Source: a virus. Taken from it: a stretch of 41,494 bases of DNA. Under the pieces are notes generated by a model that did not search any database, was not told the origin of the DNA, and was given only the letters and a program-made list of their open reading frames with translations. This document shows positions 24,464 through 40,586 of the stretch, in pieces; the stretch's first letter is position 1; each line of letters opens with the position of its first letter. A program made the position numbers and the translations under genes. Location: the UHGV virus genome UHGV-1357485. One strand, written 5' to 3'.

Positions 24464-24559
24464 AAGCGAAGCTTATACATATCTTTTACATCAGCAATCT
24501 ATTGTTAATCTCCAATCAATGTTACGTTGTCATCTCACTCATGCTTTGGAGGTAGTGAT

Positions 24560-24682
24560 ATGTCTTGTCCAAAATGCGGTTCTGGAAATATTGCAAAAGA
24601 AAAAACAATGCGTGGATGGTCTGGTGATTATGTGTGCTGCGATTGCGGATACAACGACTCGGTAATGACTCCAACTTATTGA
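24560..24682 (+). pseudogene. zinc-ribbon small protein gene truncated by IS1 insertion
   Basis: GGAGG RBS, CPKCG...CCDCG; reading frame enters IS1 at 24661; original 3' end (about 59 aa total) resumes after the IS at 25438-25517. Confidence 0.55.
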
Positions 24683-25179
24683 TAGTGTTTTATGTTCAGA
24701 TAATGCCCGATGACTTTGTCATGCAGCTCCACCGATTTTGAGAACGACAGCGACTTCCGTCCCAGCCGTGCCAGGTGCTGCCTCAGATTCAGGTTATGCC
24801 GCTCAATTCGCTGCGTATATCGCTTGCTGATTACGTGCAGCTTTCCCTTCAGGCGGGATTCATACAGCGGCCAGCCATCCGTCATCCATATCACCACGTC
24901 AAAGGGTGACAGCAGGCTCATAAGACGCCCCAGCGTCGCCATAGTGCGTTCACCGAATACGTGCGCAACAACCGTCTTCCGGAGACTGTCATACGCGTAA
25001 AACAGCCAGCGCTGGCGCGATTTAGCCCCGACATAGCCCCACTGTTCGTCCATTTCCGCGCAGACGATGACGTCACTGCCCGGCTGTATGCGCGAGGTTA
25101 CCGACTGCGGCCTGAGTTTTTTAAGTGACGTAAAATCGTGTTGAGGCCAACGCCCATAATGCGGGCAGTTGCCCGGCAT
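24676..25179 (-). CDS. insB: IS1 transposase InsB (167 aa)
   Basis: Matches recalled IS1 InsB. Confidence 0.9.
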
Positions 25180-25373
25180 CCAACGCCATTCATGGCCATA
25201 TCAATGATTTTCTGGTGCGTACCGGGTTGAGAAGCGGTGTAAGTGAACTGCAGTTGCCATGTTTTACGGCAGTGAGAGCAGAGATAGCGCTGATGTCCGG
25301 CGGTGCTTTTGCCGTTACGCACCACCCCGTCAGTAGCTGAACAGGAGGGACAGCTGATAGAAACAGAAGCCAC
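25098..25373 (-). CDS. insA: IS1 protein InsA (91 aa)
   Basis: Matches recalled IS1 InsA (zinc-finger/HTH). Confidence 0.9.
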
Positions 25374-25579
25374 TGGAGCACCTCAAAAACACCATCATAC
25401 ACTAAATCAGTAAGTTGGCAGCATCACCCAACGACTCTAAAGACGCATTTGGAGAGCGTGGTAAAAACGAGTTTGTCAAAATTAATAAAGATCGCGAAGG
25501 CAACGGAAAAAGCTAATTTATTTATTCATATATGAAAACAATGTAACCAATATTCGAATTGAAGAACTGAAAGAACACC

Positions 25580-25603
25580 AAGCCGCCTGATGGCGGTTTT
25601 TTA
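25580..25603 (+). terminator. intrinsic terminator
   Basis: GCCGCC-TGAT-GGCGG hairpin followed by TTTTTTATT. Confidence 0.5.
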
Positions 25604-25616
25604 TTGGAGACAAGAA

Positions 25617-25961
25617 ATGTCAGATTTGGCTATGAAGGTTTTGAAATGGCAATCAACTGGCGATGTCGGTATCAGTAGCGCAACTCTTGCCTCAATCGCA
25701 TGTGGGCTGAAAAAGAATATCTATGGTCATCACTTCGGCGCTCCACATGACGCAGCCGATTTCAGACGATGCGTTGCACTTGTTGAGCAGATTCCAGAAA
25801 TCAGAGATTCATTCGACAAGGTTGCAAAGCGCGTTCCGGCATTCAAAGGCATCCTCACCGAATGGGATTCCCTCGTTGCTCTGTTGAAGTCTGAAATGAA
25901 GATACACGGAAACAAAGCACCAGAGACTTACAGAAGAATTAGCGAGTTACGCAAGGACTAA
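25617..25961 (+). CDS. hypothetical protein (114 aa) flanked by terminators
   Basis: GGAGA RBS before ATG 25617; no family recognised. Confidence 0.5.
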   Translation: MSDLAMKVLKWQSTGDVGISSATLASIACGLKKNIYGHHFGAPHDAADFRRCVALVEQIPEIRDSFDKVAKRVPAFKGILTEWDSLVALLKSEMKIHGNKAPETYRRISELRKD

Positions 25962-26018
25962 CCACAGCCTCACACTCGATGAGGCATTTTCATTTATCAA
26001 GATATCCAGACCTACCAT

Positions 26019-26042
26019 CGCCGCATCAATGCGGTTTTTTTA
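26019..26042 (+). terminator. intrinsic terminator
   Basis: CCGCAT-CA-ATGCGG hairpin followed by TTTTTTTATT. Confidence 0.45.
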
Positions 26043-26086
26043 TTGCCTGATTTGCAGGTTCGATTCCCTATTCGGAGATAGCACTC

Positions 26087-26287
26087 ATGCAACACGAACT
26101 ACAGCCTGATTCACTGGTTGATTTGAAATTCATCATGGCCGATACTGGCTTCGGTAAAACCTTCATCTATGACCGGATTAAGTCCGGGGACCTGCCTAAA
26201 GCCAAAGTTATCCACGGGCGAGCAAGATGGTTATATCGTGACCATTGTGAATTCAAAAATAAGCTCTTAAGCCGCGCCAATGGGTAA
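26087..26287 (+). CDS. AlpA-family excisionase / transcriptional regulator (66 aa)
   Basis: Small HTH protein of AlpA type immediately upstream of the P4-type integrase; GGAGA RBS. Confidence 0.7.
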   Translation: MQHELQPDSLVDLKFIMADTGFGKTFIYDRIKSGDLPKAKVIHGRARWLYRDHCEFKNKLLSRANG

Positions 26288-26536
26288 AATAGCGGGTAAA
26301 ATATTTCTCACATCTAAAAAACATCATTCCAATCAATCCCCTGCCGCGCCAAGTAGATGTCTGCAGGGGACACCATTTATCAGTTCGCCACCATCCGTGC
26401 CAGTCCGCAAAATCCCCTGAATATCAAGCCTTCCGTATATTCACGGTTCGTCATGGTTCGCGTCAGATCGTTGACAGCCGCACACCATGACGGGTAAAAA
26501 GTGGATAAAATAATTTTACCCACCGGATTTTTACCC
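26281..26536. repeat. GGGTAAAA direct and inverted repeats around the att core (candidate arm-type Int/Xis binding sites)
   Basis: At least three direct GGGTAAAA copies and two inverted TTTTACCC copies in the xis-int interval. Confidence 0.4.
26361..26375 (+). other. attP core candidate: 15-nt match to the 3' end of tRNA-Arg(CCU) argW (CTGCAGGGGACACCA)
   Basis: Identity to the recalled argW 3' terminus, about 160 bp upstream of an IntS-like integrase in the same orientation. Confidence 0.5.
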
Positions 26537-27694
26537 ATGCTCACCGTTAAGCAGATTGAAGCAGCAAAGCCGAAAGAAAAACCATACCGCCTTCTCGATG
26601 GTAATGGCCTGTACCTTTATGTCCCTGTGTCAGGGAAAAAGGTATGGCAGCTTCGCTACAAGATTGACGGTAAGGAGAAAATCCTGACCGTCGGAAAATA
26701 TCCGCTTATGACTTTGCAGGAGGCAAGGGATAAAGCATGGACCGCGAGGAAAGACATCTCGGTTGGCATCGATCCAGTAAAAGCGAAAAAGGCTTCGTCT
26801 AACAACAATTCCTTTAGCGCCATTTACAAGGAATGGTACGAGCACAAGAAGCAAGTCTGGTCAGTAGGCTATGCAAATGAACTTGCAAAAATGTTTGATG
26901 ACGACATTTTACCCATCATCGGCGGCCTTGAAATTCAGGATATTGAGCCGATGCAACTTCTTGAAGTAATCCGCAGATTTGAAGATCGCGGTGCAATGGA
27001 GCGAGCCAACAAAGCCCGCAGAAGATGCGGCGAGGTTTTCCGTTACGCTATTGTCACTGGTAGGGCTAAATATAACCCGGCACCTGACCTTGCTGACGCC
27101 ATGAAGGGATACCGCAAGAAAAACTTCCCGTTTCTTCCTGCAGACCAGATCCCGGCATTTAACAAAGCACTGGCAACATTTTCAGGAAGCATCGTATCGC
27201 TCATTGCGACCAAAGTTTTACGCTACACAGCCCTCAGAACAAAAGAGCTTCGTTCCATGCTATGGAAGAACGTCGATTTTGAAAACAGGATTATCACCAT
27301 CGACGCCAATGTGATGAAGGGACGCAAAATTCATGTGGTTCCTATGTCAGACCAGGTAGTTGAACTTCTCACTACGCTAAGCTCAATCACTAAACCAGTG
27401 TCAGAGTTTGTTTTTGCCGGGCGCAACGATAAGAAGAAGCCAATCTGCGAGAACGCGGTATTACTTGTGATCAAACAAATCGGCTATGAGGGTCTGGAAA
27501 GCGGTCACGGATTCAGGCATGAATTCAGCACGATTATGAACGAGAACGAATGGCCTGCTGATGCTATTGAAGTGCAACTGGCACATGCCAACGGCGGTTC
27601 TGTGCGTGGAATTTACAACCACGCTCAGTATCTTGATAAGCGCAGAGAAATGATGCACTGGTGGGCGGACTGGCTTGATGGGAAGGTGGAGTAG
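26537..27694 (+). CDS. int: tyrosine integrase, P4/IntS-type (385 aa from ATG 26537)
   Basis: N-terminal arm-binding region MLTVKQIEAAKPKEKPYRLLDGNGLYL...; C-terminal catalytic ...HGFRH...; resembles recalled E. coli IntS. Confidence 0.9.
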   Translation: MLTVKQIEAAKPKEKPYRLLDGNGLYLYVPVSGKKVWQLRYKIDGKEKILTVGKYPLMTLQEARDKAWTARKDISVGIDPVKAKKASSNNNSFSAIYKEWYEHKKQVWSVGYANELAKMFDDDILPIIGGLEIQDIEPMQLLEVIRRFEDRGAMERANKARRRCGEVFRYAIVTGRAKYNPAPDLADAMKGYRKKNFPFLPADQIPAFNKALATFSGSIVSLIATKVLRYTALRTKELRSMLWKNVDFENRIITIDANVMKGRKIHVVPMSDQVVELLTTLSSITKPVSEFVFAGRNDKKKPICENAVLLVIKQIGYEGLESGHGFRHEFSTIMNENEWPADAIEVQLAHANGGSVRGIYNHAQYLDKRREMMHWWADWLDGKVE

Positions 27695-27867: not shown

Positions 27868-28995
27868 CTATAATTGATTGCCTTCTATTTTTTCAACTCG
27901 AGTGGTTGAAACATCATTCTTAAATCCACTCCACCATTTTCTTAGCTTATTGTTTATTGGCTTTTCAAAAAACAAATACATCATTATTGATATAAATAAT
28001 GAAGAAAACAGAGCCATTACTATAAATTTAATTACACTTATAGCACCAAGACCAGAAACATTAAAGAACTTGCTCAATGTACTGATTACTATAGTGTGGA
28101 CCAAGTAAAATGAAAAAGAAGCATCACCTAAAAGTATCATAACTTTATTTGATATTATTTTTGAAATAATACCACCATTAAACGAAAACACTAATATTGA
28201 AAAGGCCATTGATGGTATAAAAAGCGCATCATACTGTAATCCATTGCCATTTTGACTTTTTGCCACCATATAGACAGACATTAGGATAAAGACTACAGAT
28301 GATATTTCAGCAAATGATAGAACTAAATATGACGGCTTTGACTTAAACTCAAAATATAGTTTACACAATATAATACCGATTAAAAAGTCAGGCAACCTAT
28401 TAAAAGGGTTTATGTAAAAGAACCAGTGAGAGAACGCATCACTAATTTCCCCATAGCTTGCCATGTAAATAATATTAATTAAAATTAACGCAGCAAACAA
28501 AGCGAGCATTCTTTTTCGCGCAAAAATTATAAAACAAAAAGAAACATAAAAGAACATTTCTACAGAAATGCTCCAGGATACTGCATTGAATGAGAAATAG
28601 TCTTCCTTATCTACTGAGTAAGACTGAATTAATAGTGCATTTTTTATTATAGACAATATATTTGGTGAGAATCCACCACCTAATATTGAGTGTCCAACTA
28701 TAAACACAGTCAAGCAAAGCAAATGTACTGGATATATTCTAAATACTCGATGCGCAAGAAAATCAACAAAACTTCCGTTGCCATTACGCAATGAAATAGT
28801 AAAACTATATGTTAATATAAACCCAGATAAAATAAAAAAGAAAGTAACACCAGAATACCCAAGTTTAAAATATTCAAATGATGAAGCAAAATCTCTATTA
28901 CTTGAATTTTGTATTACCGCCATGTGGCTAAAAAACACCCCAAGGGCTGCAAATGCCCTTAGGGATGTCAGGCTATTTAGTCTTTCTGCGCGCAT
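27868..28995 (-). CDS. acyltransferase-3 family membrane protein, probable O-antigen acetyltransferase (lysogenic conversion)
   Basis: N-terminal ...RLNSLTSLRAFAALGVFFSHM... and about ten TM segments; AT-rich; between tailspike and att/int where Sf6 carries oac and P22 carries gtrABC. Confidence 0.75.
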   Translation of the reverse strand: MRAERLNSLTSLRAFAALGVFFSHMAVIQNSSNRDFASSFEYFKLGYSGVTFFFILSGFILTYSFTISLRNGNGSFVDFLAHRVFRIYPVHLLCLTVFIVGHSILGGGFSPNILSIIKNALLIQSYSVDKEDYFSFNAVSWSISVEMFFYVSFCFIIFARKRMLALFAALILINIIYMASYGEISDAFSHWFFYINPFNRLPDFLIGIILCKLYFEFKSKPSYLVLSFAEISSVVFILMSVYMVAKSQNGNGLQYDALFIPSMAFSILVFSFNGGIISKIISNKVMILLGDASFSFYLVHTIVISTLSKFFNVSGLGAISVIKFIVMALFSSLFISIMMYLFFEKPINNKLRKWWSGFKNDVSTTRVEKIEGNQL

Positions 28996-29104
28996 GATAC
29001 ACCTATGTTTTAATGCACAAAAATGCAACAAAAGATTGATGATACCATAAGCAACAGAAAAATCACATGATCACTTACTCACGTTCAACTTGTACCATCA
29101 GAAT

Positions 29105-31645
29105 CTAAATTATCTGCGTCACTGACAATGCTTTCTTTAACACCACTCCTCCGCTCGTTGTTGCTCCCTTTGAGTACTCAAAGGAGATATTGGCTGAAAT
29201 GCCAAGATTCTCATCAGGACAATACCACCAAATTCCAATAGGGAGCACAGATGCCTTGTCATAACTGACAGTGCGATCATACGACGACTGGTACCCATTG
29301 AAGTCATACCATTTAAACCCAGTAATTGCGTTGCCAGCAATCATGCAATCAGTGCTCATAACTACACCAAACGCATTCTCAATATTAGATGCAACTAATA
29401 TGGCACTCATTGCGATATTCCTAAAGCTACATGACGTCACAGAGTATCCATTTGTATTTGCGTTTATAACTCCTATTTCTCCAAGGAAAGTCGTTGTCCT
29501 TATAGATCCATTAAAAAAAGATGTTGATTTTGTCCCTCTAAGACACACTCCCACATCAGACTCAAACGCGCTATCAGATATATCGATATACGTTGAACTT
29601 ACTGATGGATTATTCTTATAAAAGCTAACTCCGTAATTTAGATTATTGAAATTACAACTATTAACCCTTACAGATGCTACTCTTGCATCATATAAATAAA
29701 GGCCTGCCGTCATCCCTTCAAGGTGTGTGTCGTTTAATGGAAATACTGCATTATCCCCAGCCTCGTTAGGATCATTCATTAATGTTTTAGGGTTTGTGAA
29801 TTTATTTTTAATTATCGATGTAAACTCATCACAAAAAAAGTCATGTGATGCGCTATTAATTACCTTAAACCCTGAGAATCCGAATGGCTTCCCACCAGAG
29901 ATTATTGCCAAACAAAATGCTTGCGCCCCACCGCGTATTCTATATTGATTTGATTTTGATTCAAATTTAAAATTGCCTTGTAATGTTGAGTTGGTGATAC
30001 AACTAAAAGAGTTACCTATGTATGATACGTTATTATTATATGATGACGTTATGCTATAGCTGTTTACTTTATTTCCAGATATAAGAACATTATCACAAAA
30101 AAATTGAGCACATATCCCTGATTTTGATGTAACAACATTATCAGACATTATGCTATGAATAACCATTGAGTGAAAAGTTATGCCCCAATGACCATGGCTA
30201 TACGAAGTTGATATTAATGGATCGTTTATTATATTTCCAGTGCAGTTAACATAACAAACTTGCCTATATACTCCTATTGTTGAATCATTCAAACCAAGAG
30301 TTGAGCAAATGTTATCTTTAATAGAGCAAACAGAACTTGATGTGGCATAGCTAAACATAGCTTCTGGGATATTCCCTGTTAATCTATTCCTCTCGAATCT
30401 ACCAGAATAACAATAATATCGCATCTCAACATGGACATTATGGAAGTTACAACCAATCACTTCTGGCTCGATCTGAGACAAAAGCATGATTCTTCTTAGA
30501 GCATTGCTACTGCTTTTCATCGTCACACCATCTTTAATTTTGAATGGCGTAAGGTTACCTGTTGGGAACCCAAATTTCGCAGTCCCAGCCACCTGATTTA
30601 CCACCAGAGGTTGCGCCAAAATAGCCTTATTGGTAGTTGTATGACCTATAATTTTTGTTACCTGAATGAACTGAGATTGGTATCCATTCAAGTTAAGTGT
30701 AAGTGCCAACCCATCTATGCTGTCAGCAGGTGTGGTGGATTTTTCCGCTTCATCAATACAGAACGGATATCCATTATCAATGACGACATATTGCCCTGTG
30801 CGATCTACACCATCGAGATATACCTCAGAGTGCCCTGCAGATGCAGGCTGAGAAAAAACTGTCATAGTTGGGAAGTCATATGGCTCAACCCTAAAATGAT
30901 TACCCAATGTTATTGTGCCACGACCATATATACCTTTTGCCCCGGCTGGCGCTGTATAATCTGTTGTGGTGGTAAGGTCAGCTCCTGTAATGTTTACTTC
31001 TTCTCCGAAGTTAAACGCTGCCGTCAGTGCCTGCTCGGTTGTTACAAACCTATTGGTGTAGTTAAGGATATGGTTTAAATCATATCCGTTAAGATTCCCT
31101 ACAGACTTCCAGTTTGAATCTGGTGAACTACCAGGAGGGACAGTTAATGGAACTGACAGATCACCAGTATAAATGTAATACCACCCAGTTGATGAATAGA
31201 ATAGTGCCTGATATTTACTTGTTATCGTTGCACCAGAAGCAAAGGATACATTTTGCAGGCGTTTATAAACATTAAATCTAAAATTTTCATTAGCGTATAA
31301 AGAAAACTGATCTGGGTCGTACCCTAAAACATTAGGGAAGTAGAACTGCTGCATGCCGTAAGAATCGTATACCGCCATAGAATGGCCTTTCACAGTTACG
31401 AATTTGGCAATCTGCCCGTTATATACAGGATACCCGCCAGAGTTAATGATGATTGGCTGTGCAACAGGAACGTGAGAACCATCTTCGTTCTCCACATAAA
31501 CCTGAATCTGGTTTTCAGGATTTACTGGGTCAGTATCAATTTTACCGATATAAATTTTGCCATTGGCTACGGCTTTAAAAGAACGCGCCATAGTGAAGAG
31601 TTGCGAAGGCATCGACACGATCACATTGGCTGTAATGTCTGTCAT
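29105..31645 (-). CDS. tailspike protein: P22 gp9-like head-binding N-terminus plus divergent beta-helix receptor-binding/depolymerase region (846 aa)
   Basis: N-terminus [13 protein letters not shown]...[23 protein letters not shown]... resembles P22 tailspike; distal two-thirds AT-rich, Asn/Ser/Cys-rich. Confidence 0.85.
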
Positions 31646-39885: not shown

Positions 39886-40586
39886 CAGTCAATCAGCCCA
39901 TGTAATCTAAGTGCCGTTTCAAGCGCCAGAATACGCTGCCGCGCCTGCTGCAAACCTGTAGCGAGAGTTGCGACTTCGGATTGTGTGTACGTAGTGCCGA
40001 CAGTGTATGACTGGTTAGCGTTGAATGAGCCGAGGAGTGCCGTTCCGGTTGCTGCTGTCCATCCTGTCTGACGAGCACCGATAACCTTGGTGCCGCCGAC
40101 TGAATAGGATGTTGTTACGTTGAGGGGGGATGCCAGCGATTGTGTTGCTGTGGCTGTTTTCGATACGTAATCGTCCTGCAATGCAGAAATATTTCCTTCA
40201 GCCTCCGTCACTCTACCATCGAGAGCACTGACATCAGCCTGCAAGGTGACTATTTCACCTTCAGCCGTGGTTAGTCTGACATCCAGCGACGCGATTGCAT
40301 TGGTATTTGCAGTAATACGGATTTCATGGTCGTCTACGTCGATGCGGAGCTGACGAATTCTTTCTTCGTGATCGACCAGAATCACATCCTGCTCATCGTT
40401 CCTGACTTGTGCGTCATAAGCGCCCTGTCCGGCCTCGTTGGCCTTGTTCGCCACGTTACCAACATCAGTACCCTGTGCGATAACGTACAGCAGATATGAC
40501 TGCGAGAAGATATTGCGTGGAAGGATTGATGTATCGAGCCGCGTCGCCTGAACAATAACAGGGGTGTTGAGATTCGAATCAGCCAT
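39885..40586 (-). CDS. tail needle protein, P22 gp26-like (233 aa)
   Basis: [25 protein letters not shown]... then trimeric coiled-coil heptads; GGAGG RBS; same length as P22 gp26. Confidence 0.8.

Follow-up and report, generated by a model that had tools for sequence, protein, structure and literature searches.

The region 26020-27694 (+ strand) of the 41,494-nt viral DNA analyzed here, referred to below as the window, is an argW-type attP/integrase/excisionase module of the HK620/Sf6/KplE1-type phages, which has been well studied already, and the phage itself is P22-like, of the HK620/Sf6/IME10 group, with the same module as the E. coli K-12 cryptic prophage KplE1. The torI-attP-intS order, the 16-nt core and the junctions inside tRNA-Arg(CCU) have been published for KplE1, HK620, Sf6 and Kapi1, and the only less ordinary point is the upstream "tRNA fragment", a conserved copy of the argW T-loop before the excisionase gene, whose function we can only infer. 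This string is a separate, selectively kept copy of the attB DNA immediately left of the crossover (GGTTCGATTCC), not a missing tRNA half, and most likely it would act as an operator in the torI leader for the module's own proteins, feeding back on torI expression. Taken together, the identity of the argW module and the T-loop copy as a likely operator for torI feedback form an account that we hold with slightly better than even confidence.

The elements are arranged along the window in the order terminator, torI leader, torI, P arm, 16-nt core, P' arm with the intS promoter, and intS, so that the core is found between the ORFs 26087-26287 and 26537-27694 of the recombination directionality factor (RDF) and the integrase. 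The DNA identity of 26031-26560 to HK620, Sf6, IME10 and HZ41 is 96% to 98%. The first ORF (+ strand, 66 aa) is torI, also named hkaC or Sf6 gene 18, and encodes the RDF (excisionase); the protein is 100% identical to HK620 HkaC, Sf6 gp18 and K-12 TorI, for which the excisionase function is established (PMC3509656, PMC2951348), and its Pfam match to HTH_17 was weak. The Shine-Dalgarno (SD) sequence of torI, GGAG, was located by sequence at 26074-26077 (+ strand). The second ORF (+ strand, 385 aa) is intS, whose product belongs to the tyrosine recombinases and includes an arm-binding domain; it matches Arm-DNA-bind_3, Phage_int_M and Phage_integrase in Pfam and is 97% to 99% identical to the integrases of CUS-3, HK633, Sf6 and IME10.

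Where the mosaic boundary falls, before the torI leader, a terminator scan identified an intrinsic terminator made up of GCCGCATCAATGCGG and a T-run, with TTTTTTAT at its end (26020-26043, + strand). Here the homology to HK022, HK97 and 434, in which it is annotated as a terminator, stops, while the homology to Sf6 and HK620 begins at 26031. Upstream of 26031, the phage differs from HK620, Sf6 and Kapi1 by an extra HK022-like gene, a second terminator and IS1. No tRNA gene was found in the 41,494-nt window by ARAGORN, and no Rfam tRNA match at E<=10 was found in 25800-26700.

The 16-nt attP core, CTGCAGGGGACACCAT (26361-26376, + strand), consists of the argW 3' end and one further base. The argW sequence was taken from an E. 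coli lysogen, in which ARAGORN called it tRNA-Arg(CCU), and its last bases, CTGCAGGGGACACCA, are found exactly at 26361-26375 as the sole zero-mismatch copy in the window, with the next T completing the core. A preliminary description of this DNA had recognized the 3' end of tRNA-Arg(CCU) at these positions as an att core upstream of an IntS-like integrase, and had named the gene upstream of it as an excisionase; the alignment to argW gave exact identity, the core is the published one, and the identity of TorI/HkaC agrees with the gene call. The same core is annotated as "attP core" in the HK620 and Sf6 records and was published for KplE1 together with in vitro recombination data (PMC2951348), and the Kapi1 paper reports the same attP and the same xis-attP-int order.

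Integration of such modules at argW was further demonstrated by E. coli lysogens, in which the attL matches begin at 26361 and the attR matches end at 26375-26377. The matches break at the core in 2023 of the 5426 E. coli genomes, leaving a tRNA-Arg | intS junction at one end and torI-core-dsdC at the opposite end, so that intS adjoins tRNA-Arg and torI adjoins dsdC; these roughly 2000 genomes carry near-identical modules and are not lysogens of this exact phage. The location of attL and attR, which had been put forward as a check, is within tRNA-Arg, and neither of the two outcomes named in the preliminary description as refuting, a lack of identity to argW or lysogens integrated elsewhere, was observed. 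In modules of this type, IntS recombines the core with the 3' end of argW, which places intS beside argW and torI at the far end of the prophage.

Within 26356-26374 (+ strand), the architecture of the core predicted from sequence symmetry and junction variation is a C half-site GATGTC (26356-26361), a 7-bp overlap TGCAGGG (26362-26368) and a C' half-site GACACC (26369-26374), where C and C' form a 5/6 inverted repeat. In relatives, attP departs from attB immediately left of TGCAGG, and in diverged attR junctions the identity ends directly after TGCAGGG(G). The IntS overlap region would accordingly be TGCAGGG, and because of this placement ..TTCGATTCC would be the B half-site.

The preliminary description had also mentioned GGGTAAAA repeats surrounding the region, and these proved to be the IntS arm-type sites of the att site. 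The repeat occurs six times in the window in comparison to 1.1 expected, a number reached in 0 of 100 shuffles, and all copies fall within 26282-26914 on both strands. Two direct copies (26282-89 and 26294-301) make up the P-arm sites (26282-26301, + strand), which overlap the torI stop codon, correspond to repeats annotated "attP" in HK620 and are kept in all relatives examined; the TAAA motif of such sites has been described (PMC2951348). Farther right in the P arm, repeat analysis revealed an element formed by AATCCCCTGC followed by GCCGCGCCAA (26335-26352, + strand), with AATCCCCTGCCGCGCCA present at 26335-26351, which had been read as a second CCA-ending tRNA 3' end. This reading did not survive the comparison with relatives, which keep AATCCCCTGC but not CGCGCCA: the CCGCGCCA part is not conserved (CTGCTTCA in K-12, CATATCAGG in a Klebsiella phage), and the conserved part TCCCCTGC (26337-44) is an inverted copy of GCAGGGGA of the core. 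In addition, AATCCCCTG of this element is found again at 26411-19, and GCCGCGCCAA repeats the 3' end of torI (26271-80).

The P' arm carries five TorI boxes (26382-26472, + strand), namely AGTTCGCC (26382-89), AGTCCGCA (26402-09), GGTTCGTC (26445-52), GGTTCGCG (26455-62) and AGATCGTT (26465-72), which were placed by means of the MG1655 coordinates, the spacings and the GTTCG/GATCG/GTCCG pentamers given in the literature (PMC2951348, section 8) and then checked on the window. The intS promoter, PintS (26471-26536, no strand assigned), was recognized by sequence and repeat analysis, with a -35 box TTGACA (26471-76) and a -10 box TAAAAA (26495-500), and is overlapped by the P' arm-type sites GGGTAAAA at 26492-99 (+ strand) and TTTTACCC at 26514-21 and 26529-36 (- strand); the HK620 and Sf6 records show a pX promoter and attP repeats here. 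PintS and its autoregulation have been described, and both TorI and IntS repress it (PMC2951348).

The upstream string, T16 (TTGCAGGTTCGATTCC; 26052-26067, + strand), is identical to argW positions 46-61, which comprise the 5' strand of the T-stem, the T-loop and the first CC of the 3' strand; the match is exact and unique in the window, and the chance expectation of an exact 16-mer in 41.5 kb, on either strand, is about 2e-5. The identity to the argW T-arm had been noticed correctly in the preliminary description, which placed it one base too far to the right (about 26053-26068). Since T16 covers argW positions 46-61 and the core string CTGCAGGGGACACCA covers 61-75, the two are contiguous in argW with a 1-nt overlap, and in the window they are 293 bp apart with the 66-aa excisionase ORF in between. 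T16 lies in the torI leader, with the motif 6 nt before the ribosome-binding site, and is also present upstream of K-12 torI. Reading the motif as coding sequence was rejected, as an E. coli in-frame stop at 26048-50 precedes it and no start codon follows it; a longer GTG-start ORF annotated in Salmonella phages is not general, because the distance from the motif to the ATG shifts the frame between lineages.

To the right, T16 contains the kernel GGTTCGATTCC (26057-26067, + strand), which equals argW 51-61 and stops where TGCAGGG starts in attB, if the overlap is placed as predicted above. Upstream of torI, the part kept across the Enterobacterales is (CA)GGTTCGATTCC(C) alone, with flanks that vary, and it is sometimes duplicated and sometimes absent. 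The kernel was found before torI homologues in elements of Escherichia, Enterobacter, Citrobacter, Serratia, Pantoea, Edwardsiella, Erwinia and Salmonella, while the TTGC that stretches the match to 16 nt belongs to the E. coli lineage only; the argW match is extended leftward in E. coli and rightward in Serratia (CAGGTTCGATTCCTG), and Proteus argW has the same T-loop. The exact 11-mer was present in 36 of 86 unique torI-family leaders, 27 had one mismatch, 2 were intermediate and 21 had none of it, and shuffled leaders peak at 4 to 6 mismatches to the 11-mer. Nineteen deep lineages keep GTTCGATT(C/T)C with varying flanks and spacers to the SD, an invariance that is built in because the lineages were picked by a regular expression for that 10-mer. 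The spacing from the motif to GGAG is 3 to 6 nt in most lineages, and in Erwinia phages the motif is in tandem duplicate.

The motif is absent in Klebsiella phage Chronis, Erwinia phage EhrS_49 and about one quarter of the leaders, and it is therefore dispensable, since the modules are otherwise intact. Among E. coli phages, the motif showed no visible reduction in polymorphism relative to its flanks, with 5 single-base variants in 49 unique sequences, and the case for selection on it rests on the deep comparisons, not on polymorphism within E. coli. All the torI-family modules found target an argW-type core. A scan of viral contigs with the 14-mer CAGGTTCGATTCCCV gave more than 120 loci, mostly tRNA/att-like fragments or coding DNA, with no new gene context beyond torI leaders. 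Other IntS-like integrases (66FD, Tyrion, YeP5 and Pseudomonas F116-like phages) were set aside as comparators as their gene order differs.

The contiguity of the two strings in argW might be explained by an ancestral attP which held a contiguous argW 3' segment of about 31 nt (T-arm plus acceptor) and into which a 293-bp excisionase/P-arm piece was inserted later, leaving two halves as neutral relics. The strings do stand in the same order and orientation in the phage as in the tRNA gene, the 16-mer is hardly expected by chance, and the different flanking tRNA bases kept by different lineages (a left-hand TTGC in E. coli, a right-hand TG in Serratia and Pantoea) are compatible with a longer ancestral copy. 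We nevertheless consider this history improbable. The C side of attP in relatives reads TTCGATGTxTGCAGGGGAC, so that a T-loop-like sequence of their own, the degenerate TTCGATGT, abuts the core and nothing is "missing" there; the supposed insert holds the P-arm arm-type sites needed by attP, which would leave the ancestor without a P arm; and a neutral relic should decay like its flanks, whereas the 11-mer is kept across genera while its neighbors change and is even duplicated in tandem in some phages. The earlier view of two tRNA pieces split by the excisionase gene was thus abandoned, given the T-loop remnant in the relatives' own attP and an upstream piece of which only an 11-13-mer is conserved, being duplicated or missing in some lineages, with a TTGC specific to the E. 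coli lineage.

GenBank records mark the T16 spot in two ways: HK620 and Sf6 place a pI promoter and its cII site there, and CUS-3 an "att core". The CUS-3 annotation makes TTGCAGGTTCGATTCC itself the recombination site of the prophage, labeling the 16-mer "attL core" at 1-16 and "attR core" at 40192-40207, and in any lysogen the 16-mer does form a direct repeat, with one copy in argW and the other upstream of torI. We give this assignment almost no credence: the homology between phage and host breaks at 26361-26376 and not at T16, the published core backed by recombination in vitro is CTGCAGGGGACACCAT, an argW-T16-torI junction, searched with a chimeric query, was found in 0 of 5426 complete E. 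coli genomes, and the CUS-3 record stops before torI. As a recombination site in E. coli, T16 is already refuted by the junction data.

According to the HK620 and Sf6 annotations, the string would simply form the spacer in a pI promoter activated by CII, with TTGC repeats and a poor -35, that drives the integrase at lysogeny, and its tRNA likeness would be incidental. In the HK620 record the "phage integration" promoter, cII site included, spans 26041-26079, and Sf6 has pI at the same place; the record of phage 434 likewise shows a CII-dependent pI behind this terminator, in the corresponding position, and both the terminator and the leader recur in HK022 and HK97. The string annotated as the cII-binding site, TTGCCTGATTTGC (26043-26055, + strand), is spaced TTGC-N5-TTGC, not as the lambda-type N6, and the window contains 4 instances of the N5 pattern, 3.35 being expected by chance, while its three N6 boxes all lie elsewhere. 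E. coli phages vary in the first TTGC (with TTAC and TTTC as variants), other genera retain the motif without the box, and a consensus scan found no sigma-70-like promoter there. As a promoter spacer would also leave the 11-13-nt identity to the attB tRNA unexplained, we regard such a role as unlikely.

Another explanation places the function in RNA, where GGUUCGAUUCC in the torI mRNA leader would mimic a T-loop for enzymes that recognize the T-arm, or where UUCC would pair with GGAG to damp translation. The fixed orientation of the motif, its constant nearness to the SD (mostly 3 to 6 nt) and the lack of a predicted promoter between the terminator and torI, by which the motif is probably transcribed, are in line with this, and RNAalifold pairs AUU.CC with GG.GAU in most sequences. 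The consensus structure of 14 diverse leaders, though, has only -1.06 kcal/mol with a covariation term of zero (RNAalifold), the 3' strand of the T-stem is lost (CCC.. vs CCUGC) so that most lineages have no T-arm hairpin, and Rfam gave no tRNA-like match. An RNA element is in our judgment a poor candidate, marginally poorer than the promoter spacer or the relic.

The operator reading is favored because the motif matches the likely IntS B half-site and shares GGTTCG with TorI boxes I3 and I4. Within the kernel, a TorI-type box GGTTCGAT (26057-26064) fits the 8-nt form [A/G]G[T/A][T/C]CGNN by sequence match, and its first six bases are those of I3 and I4; TorI boxes are defined by GTTCG/GATCG/GTCCG, and TorI and IntS are known repressors of PintS, while PtorI and the torI leader were called uncharacterized in the 2010 literature on the KplE1 module. 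Either TorI might bind the motif, or the catalytic part of IntS might do so, anchored through the pair of arm sites at the torI 3' end, and binding by either protein would keep excisionase synthesis low unless excision is called for. In its most specific form, GGTTCGATTCC would duplicate the attB left half-site as a working decoy or operator, at which tethered IntS and/or TorI throttles the excisionase, so that the recombinase set gates directionality; we put this forward tentatively, as a possibility that is doubtful as it stands.

Several observations count against an operator, among them the dispensability of the motif and its polymorphism within E. coli phages, as described above. The base after GTTCG in the motif is A, which was seen in 0 of the 15 P'-arm boxes inspected, and IntS would not ordinarily be expected to target a lone half-site at a distance of 215 to 235 bp from its arm sites. 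Among the few lineages with a complete attP, phiEt88 keeps the motif with P'-arm repeats that look like GTAAC/GTTAC, and L185 and L190, with GTTACC repeats, are without the motif. To judge from these repeats, the phiEt88 motif beside non-GTTCG boxes argues against TorI as the reader of the motif.

As an annotation, the region provides a clean example of a known attP and settles two GenBank att-core conventions, of which the CUS-3 record marks the wrong 16-mer. Of the steps that control the excision of KplE1-type prophages, the silencing of torI is the one understood least, and an 11-bp candidate operator bears directly on that step. If the operator reading is true and shared by other tRNA-integrating elements, it would add an unrecognized level of regulation, based on mimicry of the bacterial target site; if the motif is inert, knowledge of these phages is unchanged.

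In comparison to HK620, Sf6 (Clark 2001; Casjens 2004) and Kapi1, the module has the same attP core, attP repeats, pI/pX promoters, hkaC/hkaB (genes 18/17) and int. With KplE1 (CPS-53 of K-12, argW-intS ... torI-attR, studied by the Ansaldi laboratory) it shares TorI, the 16-nt core, the GGGTAAAA/TAAA arm sites, five GTTCG-type boxes, a PintS which overlaps the P' arm, and T16 upstream of torI. Two differences are that KplE1 is a 10-kb remnant while the attP here is unintegrated in a complete P22-like phage, and that the terminator upstream of torI is degenerate in K-12 while it is intact here.

Similar to the lambda attP, the module combines a heterobivalent integrase with sites on both arms, phased RDF boxes and probably a 7-bp overlap with imperfect inverted core sites, the lambda side of this comparison being established knowledge. 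The module differs from lambda in that attP lies between xis and int, so that the genes part on integration, in that the RDF boxes are in the P' arm, and in that int has its own autoregulated promoter and the proposed cII box is mis-spaced; to our knowledge, an extra copy of the attB left half-site in the xis leader has no lambda counterpart. P2 Cox, 186 Apl, P4 Vis and AlpA are RDFs which also act as transcriptional regulators. The TorI-leader site differs from these in being putative, with a motif longer than a TorI box, while TorI itself represses PintS as such a regulator does, and this pattern would extend to a TorI-type box in the leader of torI.

The 3' end of argW, the tRNA-Arg(CCU) gene used as attB, was found in the window as CTGCAGGGGACACCA at 26361-26375, and a second argW string, the 16-mer TTGCAGGTTCGATTCC (T16), was found at 26052-26067. 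Both matches are exact and each is the only copy in the window, while the chance expectation of an exact 16-mer in 41.5 kb is about 2e-5. Alignment to an argW reference taken from an E. coli lysogen, in which ARAGORN called tRNA-Arg(CCU), placed TTGCAGGTTCGATTCC at positions 46-61 and CTGCAGGGGACACCA at positions 61-75, so that they adjoin and share one base, whereas 293 bp separate them in the window. The window itself contains no tRNA gene according to ARAGORN and no Rfam tRNA match even at E<=10. The preliminary description thus identified both strings correctly, and its position for the T-arm string has to be moved by one base to the left.

Its main claim, that an argW attachment core lies upstream of an IntS-type integrase gene, was tested by lysogen junctions. 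The results showed that in 2023 of 5426 complete E. coli genomes the matches to 25960-26560 break at the core (26361-26376, the 16-nt identity block of attP and attB), next to tRNA-Arg: one piece starts at 26361 in a place annotated "tRNA-Arg | intS", and the other, which carries torI, ends at 26375-26377. Both junctions were checked base by base in two strains. The published KplE1 core is CTGCAGGGGACACCAT (PMC2951348). The claim is right, and is textbook knowledge about phages of this group. Kapi1 has the same att sequence with attP between xis and int, so that the two genes come to lie at opposite prophage ends (PMC8787464). An uninterrupted torI-attP-intS stretch was also seen inside the chromosome of E. 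coli ET151, where intS is frameshifted, and of 16 other E. coli genomes; such prophages either entered at a different site or form part of a tandem or rearranged array.

The repeats described as surrounding the region were borne out, with six copies of GGGTAAAA versus 1.1 expected, all within 26282-26914. The arm-type sites of the P arm are two direct copies of GGGTAAAA (26282-89 and 26294-301) overlapping the torI stop codon, and those of the P' arm are GGGTAAAA at 26492-99 and TTTTACCC at 26514-21 and 26529-36. Five TorI boxes were placed in the P' arm from published MG1655 coordinates, spacings and the pentamers GTTCG, GATCG and GTCCG (PMC2951348), namely AGTTCGCC (26382-89), AGTCCGCA (26402-09), GGTTCGTC (26445-52), GGTTCGCG (26455-62) and AGATCGTT (26465-72), and the -35 (TTGACA) and -10 (TAAAAA) elements of the intS promoter PintS are at 26471-76 and 26495-500. 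The core reads GATGTC, TGCAGGG, GACACC, its outer hexamers forming a 5/6 inverted repeat as is usual for a tyrosine-recombinase site. In diverged relatives attP departs from attB immediately left of TGCAGG, and at several attR junctions identity ends right after TGCAGGG(G); from these two limits we infer TGCAGGG as the 7-bp overlap region, in which case the left half-site (B) in attB would be the T-loop sequence ..TTCGATTCC. A 46-aa ORF homologous to hkaB (Sf6 gene 17), at 26280-26420, extends over the P arm and the core and through the first TorI boxes; Pfam gives no match for it, and we doubt that it is a real gene. In the Erwinia phage phiEt88 (locus L118, 2100-2260) and in L185/L190, the repeats at the TorI-box positions are GATGTAACC/GTTACC, not GTTCG, and the arm-type sites read GCGGGCATA, which suggests that the excisionase and arm-binding specificities were switched while the argW core was unchanged.

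A second CCA-ending tRNA-like 3' end had also been proposed, at about 26333-26355. The string AATCCCCTGCCGCGCCA is present at 26335-26351, but only AATCCCCTGC is kept among relatives, and CGCGCCA, the source of the resemblance to CCA, is TGCTTCA in K-12 and yet another sequence in the Klebsiella phage and in further relatives. Within the string, the core's GCAGGGGA recurs in inverted form as TCCCCTGC (26337-44), AATCCCCTG has a second copy beyond the core, at 26411-19, and the 10 nt of GCCGCGCCAA also occur, in direct orientation, at the torI 3' end. The string is a P-arm element, possibly a site for IHF or Int, rather than a fragment of a tRNA.

T16 lies in the torI leader after an intrinsic terminator (26020-26043), at a mosaic boundary where homology to HK022/HK97/434 stops at about 26055 and homology to Sf6/HK620 starts at 26031. 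A similar terminator ending TTTTTTATT occurs twice, at 25582-25606, directly followed by the GGAG..ATG of an HK022-like gene (25618-25961), and at 26020-26043, while in Sf6, HK620 and CUS-3 the torI leader follows immediately on the counterpart of the first. Modules thus seem to have been exchanged repeatedly at the T-run/ATT junction, which the Sf6 annotation calls a "boundary sequence". T16 has been seen before, under inconsistent annotations. The HK620 and Sf6 records place the pI promoter here, and the HK620 record adds a cII site, but the spacing is TTGC-N5-TTGC rather than N6, a pattern expected 3.35 times by chance in the window, the first TTGC is polymorphic among E. coli phages, and a consensus scan found no sigma-70-like promoter between the terminator and torI. 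The CUS-3 record (CP000711; loci L204 and L202) instead takes T16 as the att core, with an "attL core" at 1-16, inside argW, and an "attR core" at 40192-40207. This assignment is wrong for the crossover, since the lysogen junctions lie at 26361-26376 and the argW-T16-torI scar expected from recombination at T16 was found in 0 of 5426 E. coli genomes. These features are off by 15 nt at attL and about 309 bp at attR, and because the record is bounded by the T-arm 16-mer and not by the true core, it ends just before torI, without torI and the P arm.

Homologues of torI were collected from one genome per species (24 loci), viral contigs and deposited phages. The conserved 11-mer kernel of T16 (26057-26067), GGTTCGATTCC, was exact in 36 of 86 unique leaders, had one mismatch in 27, was decayed in two and was missing in 21, while shuffled leaders peaked at 4-6 mismatches. 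The form GTTCGATT(C/T)C was found in nineteen deep lineages, including Enterobacter, Citrobacter, Serratia, Pantoea, Edwardsiella, Erwinia and Salmonella elements and phiEt88, although these lineages were chosen by a regular expression for the 10-mer and its invariance among them is thus built in. Phage phiEt88 has the motif although its excisionase is only 39% identical. Flanking bases and the 3-6-nt spacer to the Shine-Dalgarno sequence vary among the nineteen; the TTGC by which the match reaches 16 nt in E. coli is confined to that lineage, and in Serratia and Pantoea the argW match is lengthened rightward instead (..CCTG). Erwinia phages carry two tandem copies: in L114 (1755-1790), L186 and L188, AGGTTCGATTCCC is repeated at a spacing of 16 nt immediately before the xis Shine-Dalgarno sequence, the second copy being mutated in L186, and a close relative, L187, has a single copy. 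The motif is absent from Klebsiella phage Chronis, Erwinia phage EhrS_49 and several Pantoea-type elements. In Chronis (L006, 1740-1760) xis overlaps an upstream TraR-like gene, and the core is ATGCAGGGGACACTTG, a phage copy without the CCA end, so that integration would, depending on the crossover point, leave argW without an encoded CCA.

The C side of attP in most relatives reads TTCGATGTxTGCAGGGGAC, so attP has its own degenerate T-loop beside the core, decayed in the window to GTAGATGT; Proteus argW has the same T-loop. Together, the leaders, the copy numbers and the attP C side reject the proposal that two tRNA pieces were split by the excisionase gene, and indicate that the upstream string is probably a second T-loop copy, kept because it is functional. 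A coding role was discarded, with an in-frame stop before the motif in E. coli, no start after it and a frame that varies between lineages, as was a hairpin, with the T-stem 3' strand not kept and an RNAalifold energy of -1.06 kcal/mol without covariation, the sole recurrent pairing being a weak UUCC with the GGAG Shine-Dalgarno sequence.

An identity of 11-13 nt to the T-loop of the attB tRNA cannot be coincidence, and is most simply accounted for if the proteins reading that DNA also recognise the motif. The motif is identical to the inferred IntS B half-site, and its end coincides exactly with the start of the overlap region in attB. A TorI-type box is formed by the first eight bases of the motif, GGTTCGAT, whose hexamer is that of boxes I3 and I4, and in several lineages a second GTTCG/GTCCG/GATCG pentamer lies 12 nt downstream, made from the spacer and the first G of the Shine-Dalgarno sequence. 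Both TorI and IntS repress PintS, and torI control has been described as uncharacterised (PMC2951348). On these grounds we propose that the motif is most likely a candidate operator in the torI leader. TorI may autoregulate through it, or IntS bound to the two arm sites at the torI 3' end might reach back to it, looping out the 200-bp gene; the retention of the motif in phiEt88, where the P' repeats are different, favours IntS over TorI as its reader. Against the operator stand the dispensability of the motif in some lineages, E. coli polymorphism that shows no extra constraint on it, and the base after GTTCG, which is atypical for TorI boxes.

In comparison with known systems, the closest phages to the window, which is itself P22-like, are IME10 and HZ41; HK620 and Sf6 are relatives too, and the region from 26031 onward shares 96-98% identity with them. 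The 66-aa ORF at 26087-26287 encodes a protein identical to TorI of KplE1, a cryptic prophage of K-12, and the 385-aa ORF at 26537-27694 is the IntS integrase, with arm-binding, central and catalytic domains and 97-99% identity to the integrases of CUS-3, HK633, Sf6 and IME10. After int, on the minus strand (27868-31645), a 387-aa acyltransferase-like membrane ORF and an 846-aa tailspike give an int - O-antigen-modification gene - tailspike layout, as in Sf6. In the early-left region, a complete 768-bp IS1 (24661-25428) with minus-strand insA and insB lies between the copies of a 9-bp target duplication, CAACGACTC (24652-25437), and is inserted in a small zinc-ribbon-like ORF (24527-24682). 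The HK620 and Sf6 GenBank records already list the pI promoter, hkaC (gene 18), hkaB (gene 17), the 16-nt attP core, the pX promoter and int, and the HK620 record adds the cII-binding site at pI and the attP repeats. The observation is thus confirmed, its earlier interpretation is partly supported, and the locus is a near-identical member of a known system, its residual novelty being the conserved T-loop mimic and putative attB half-site copy in the excisionase leader.
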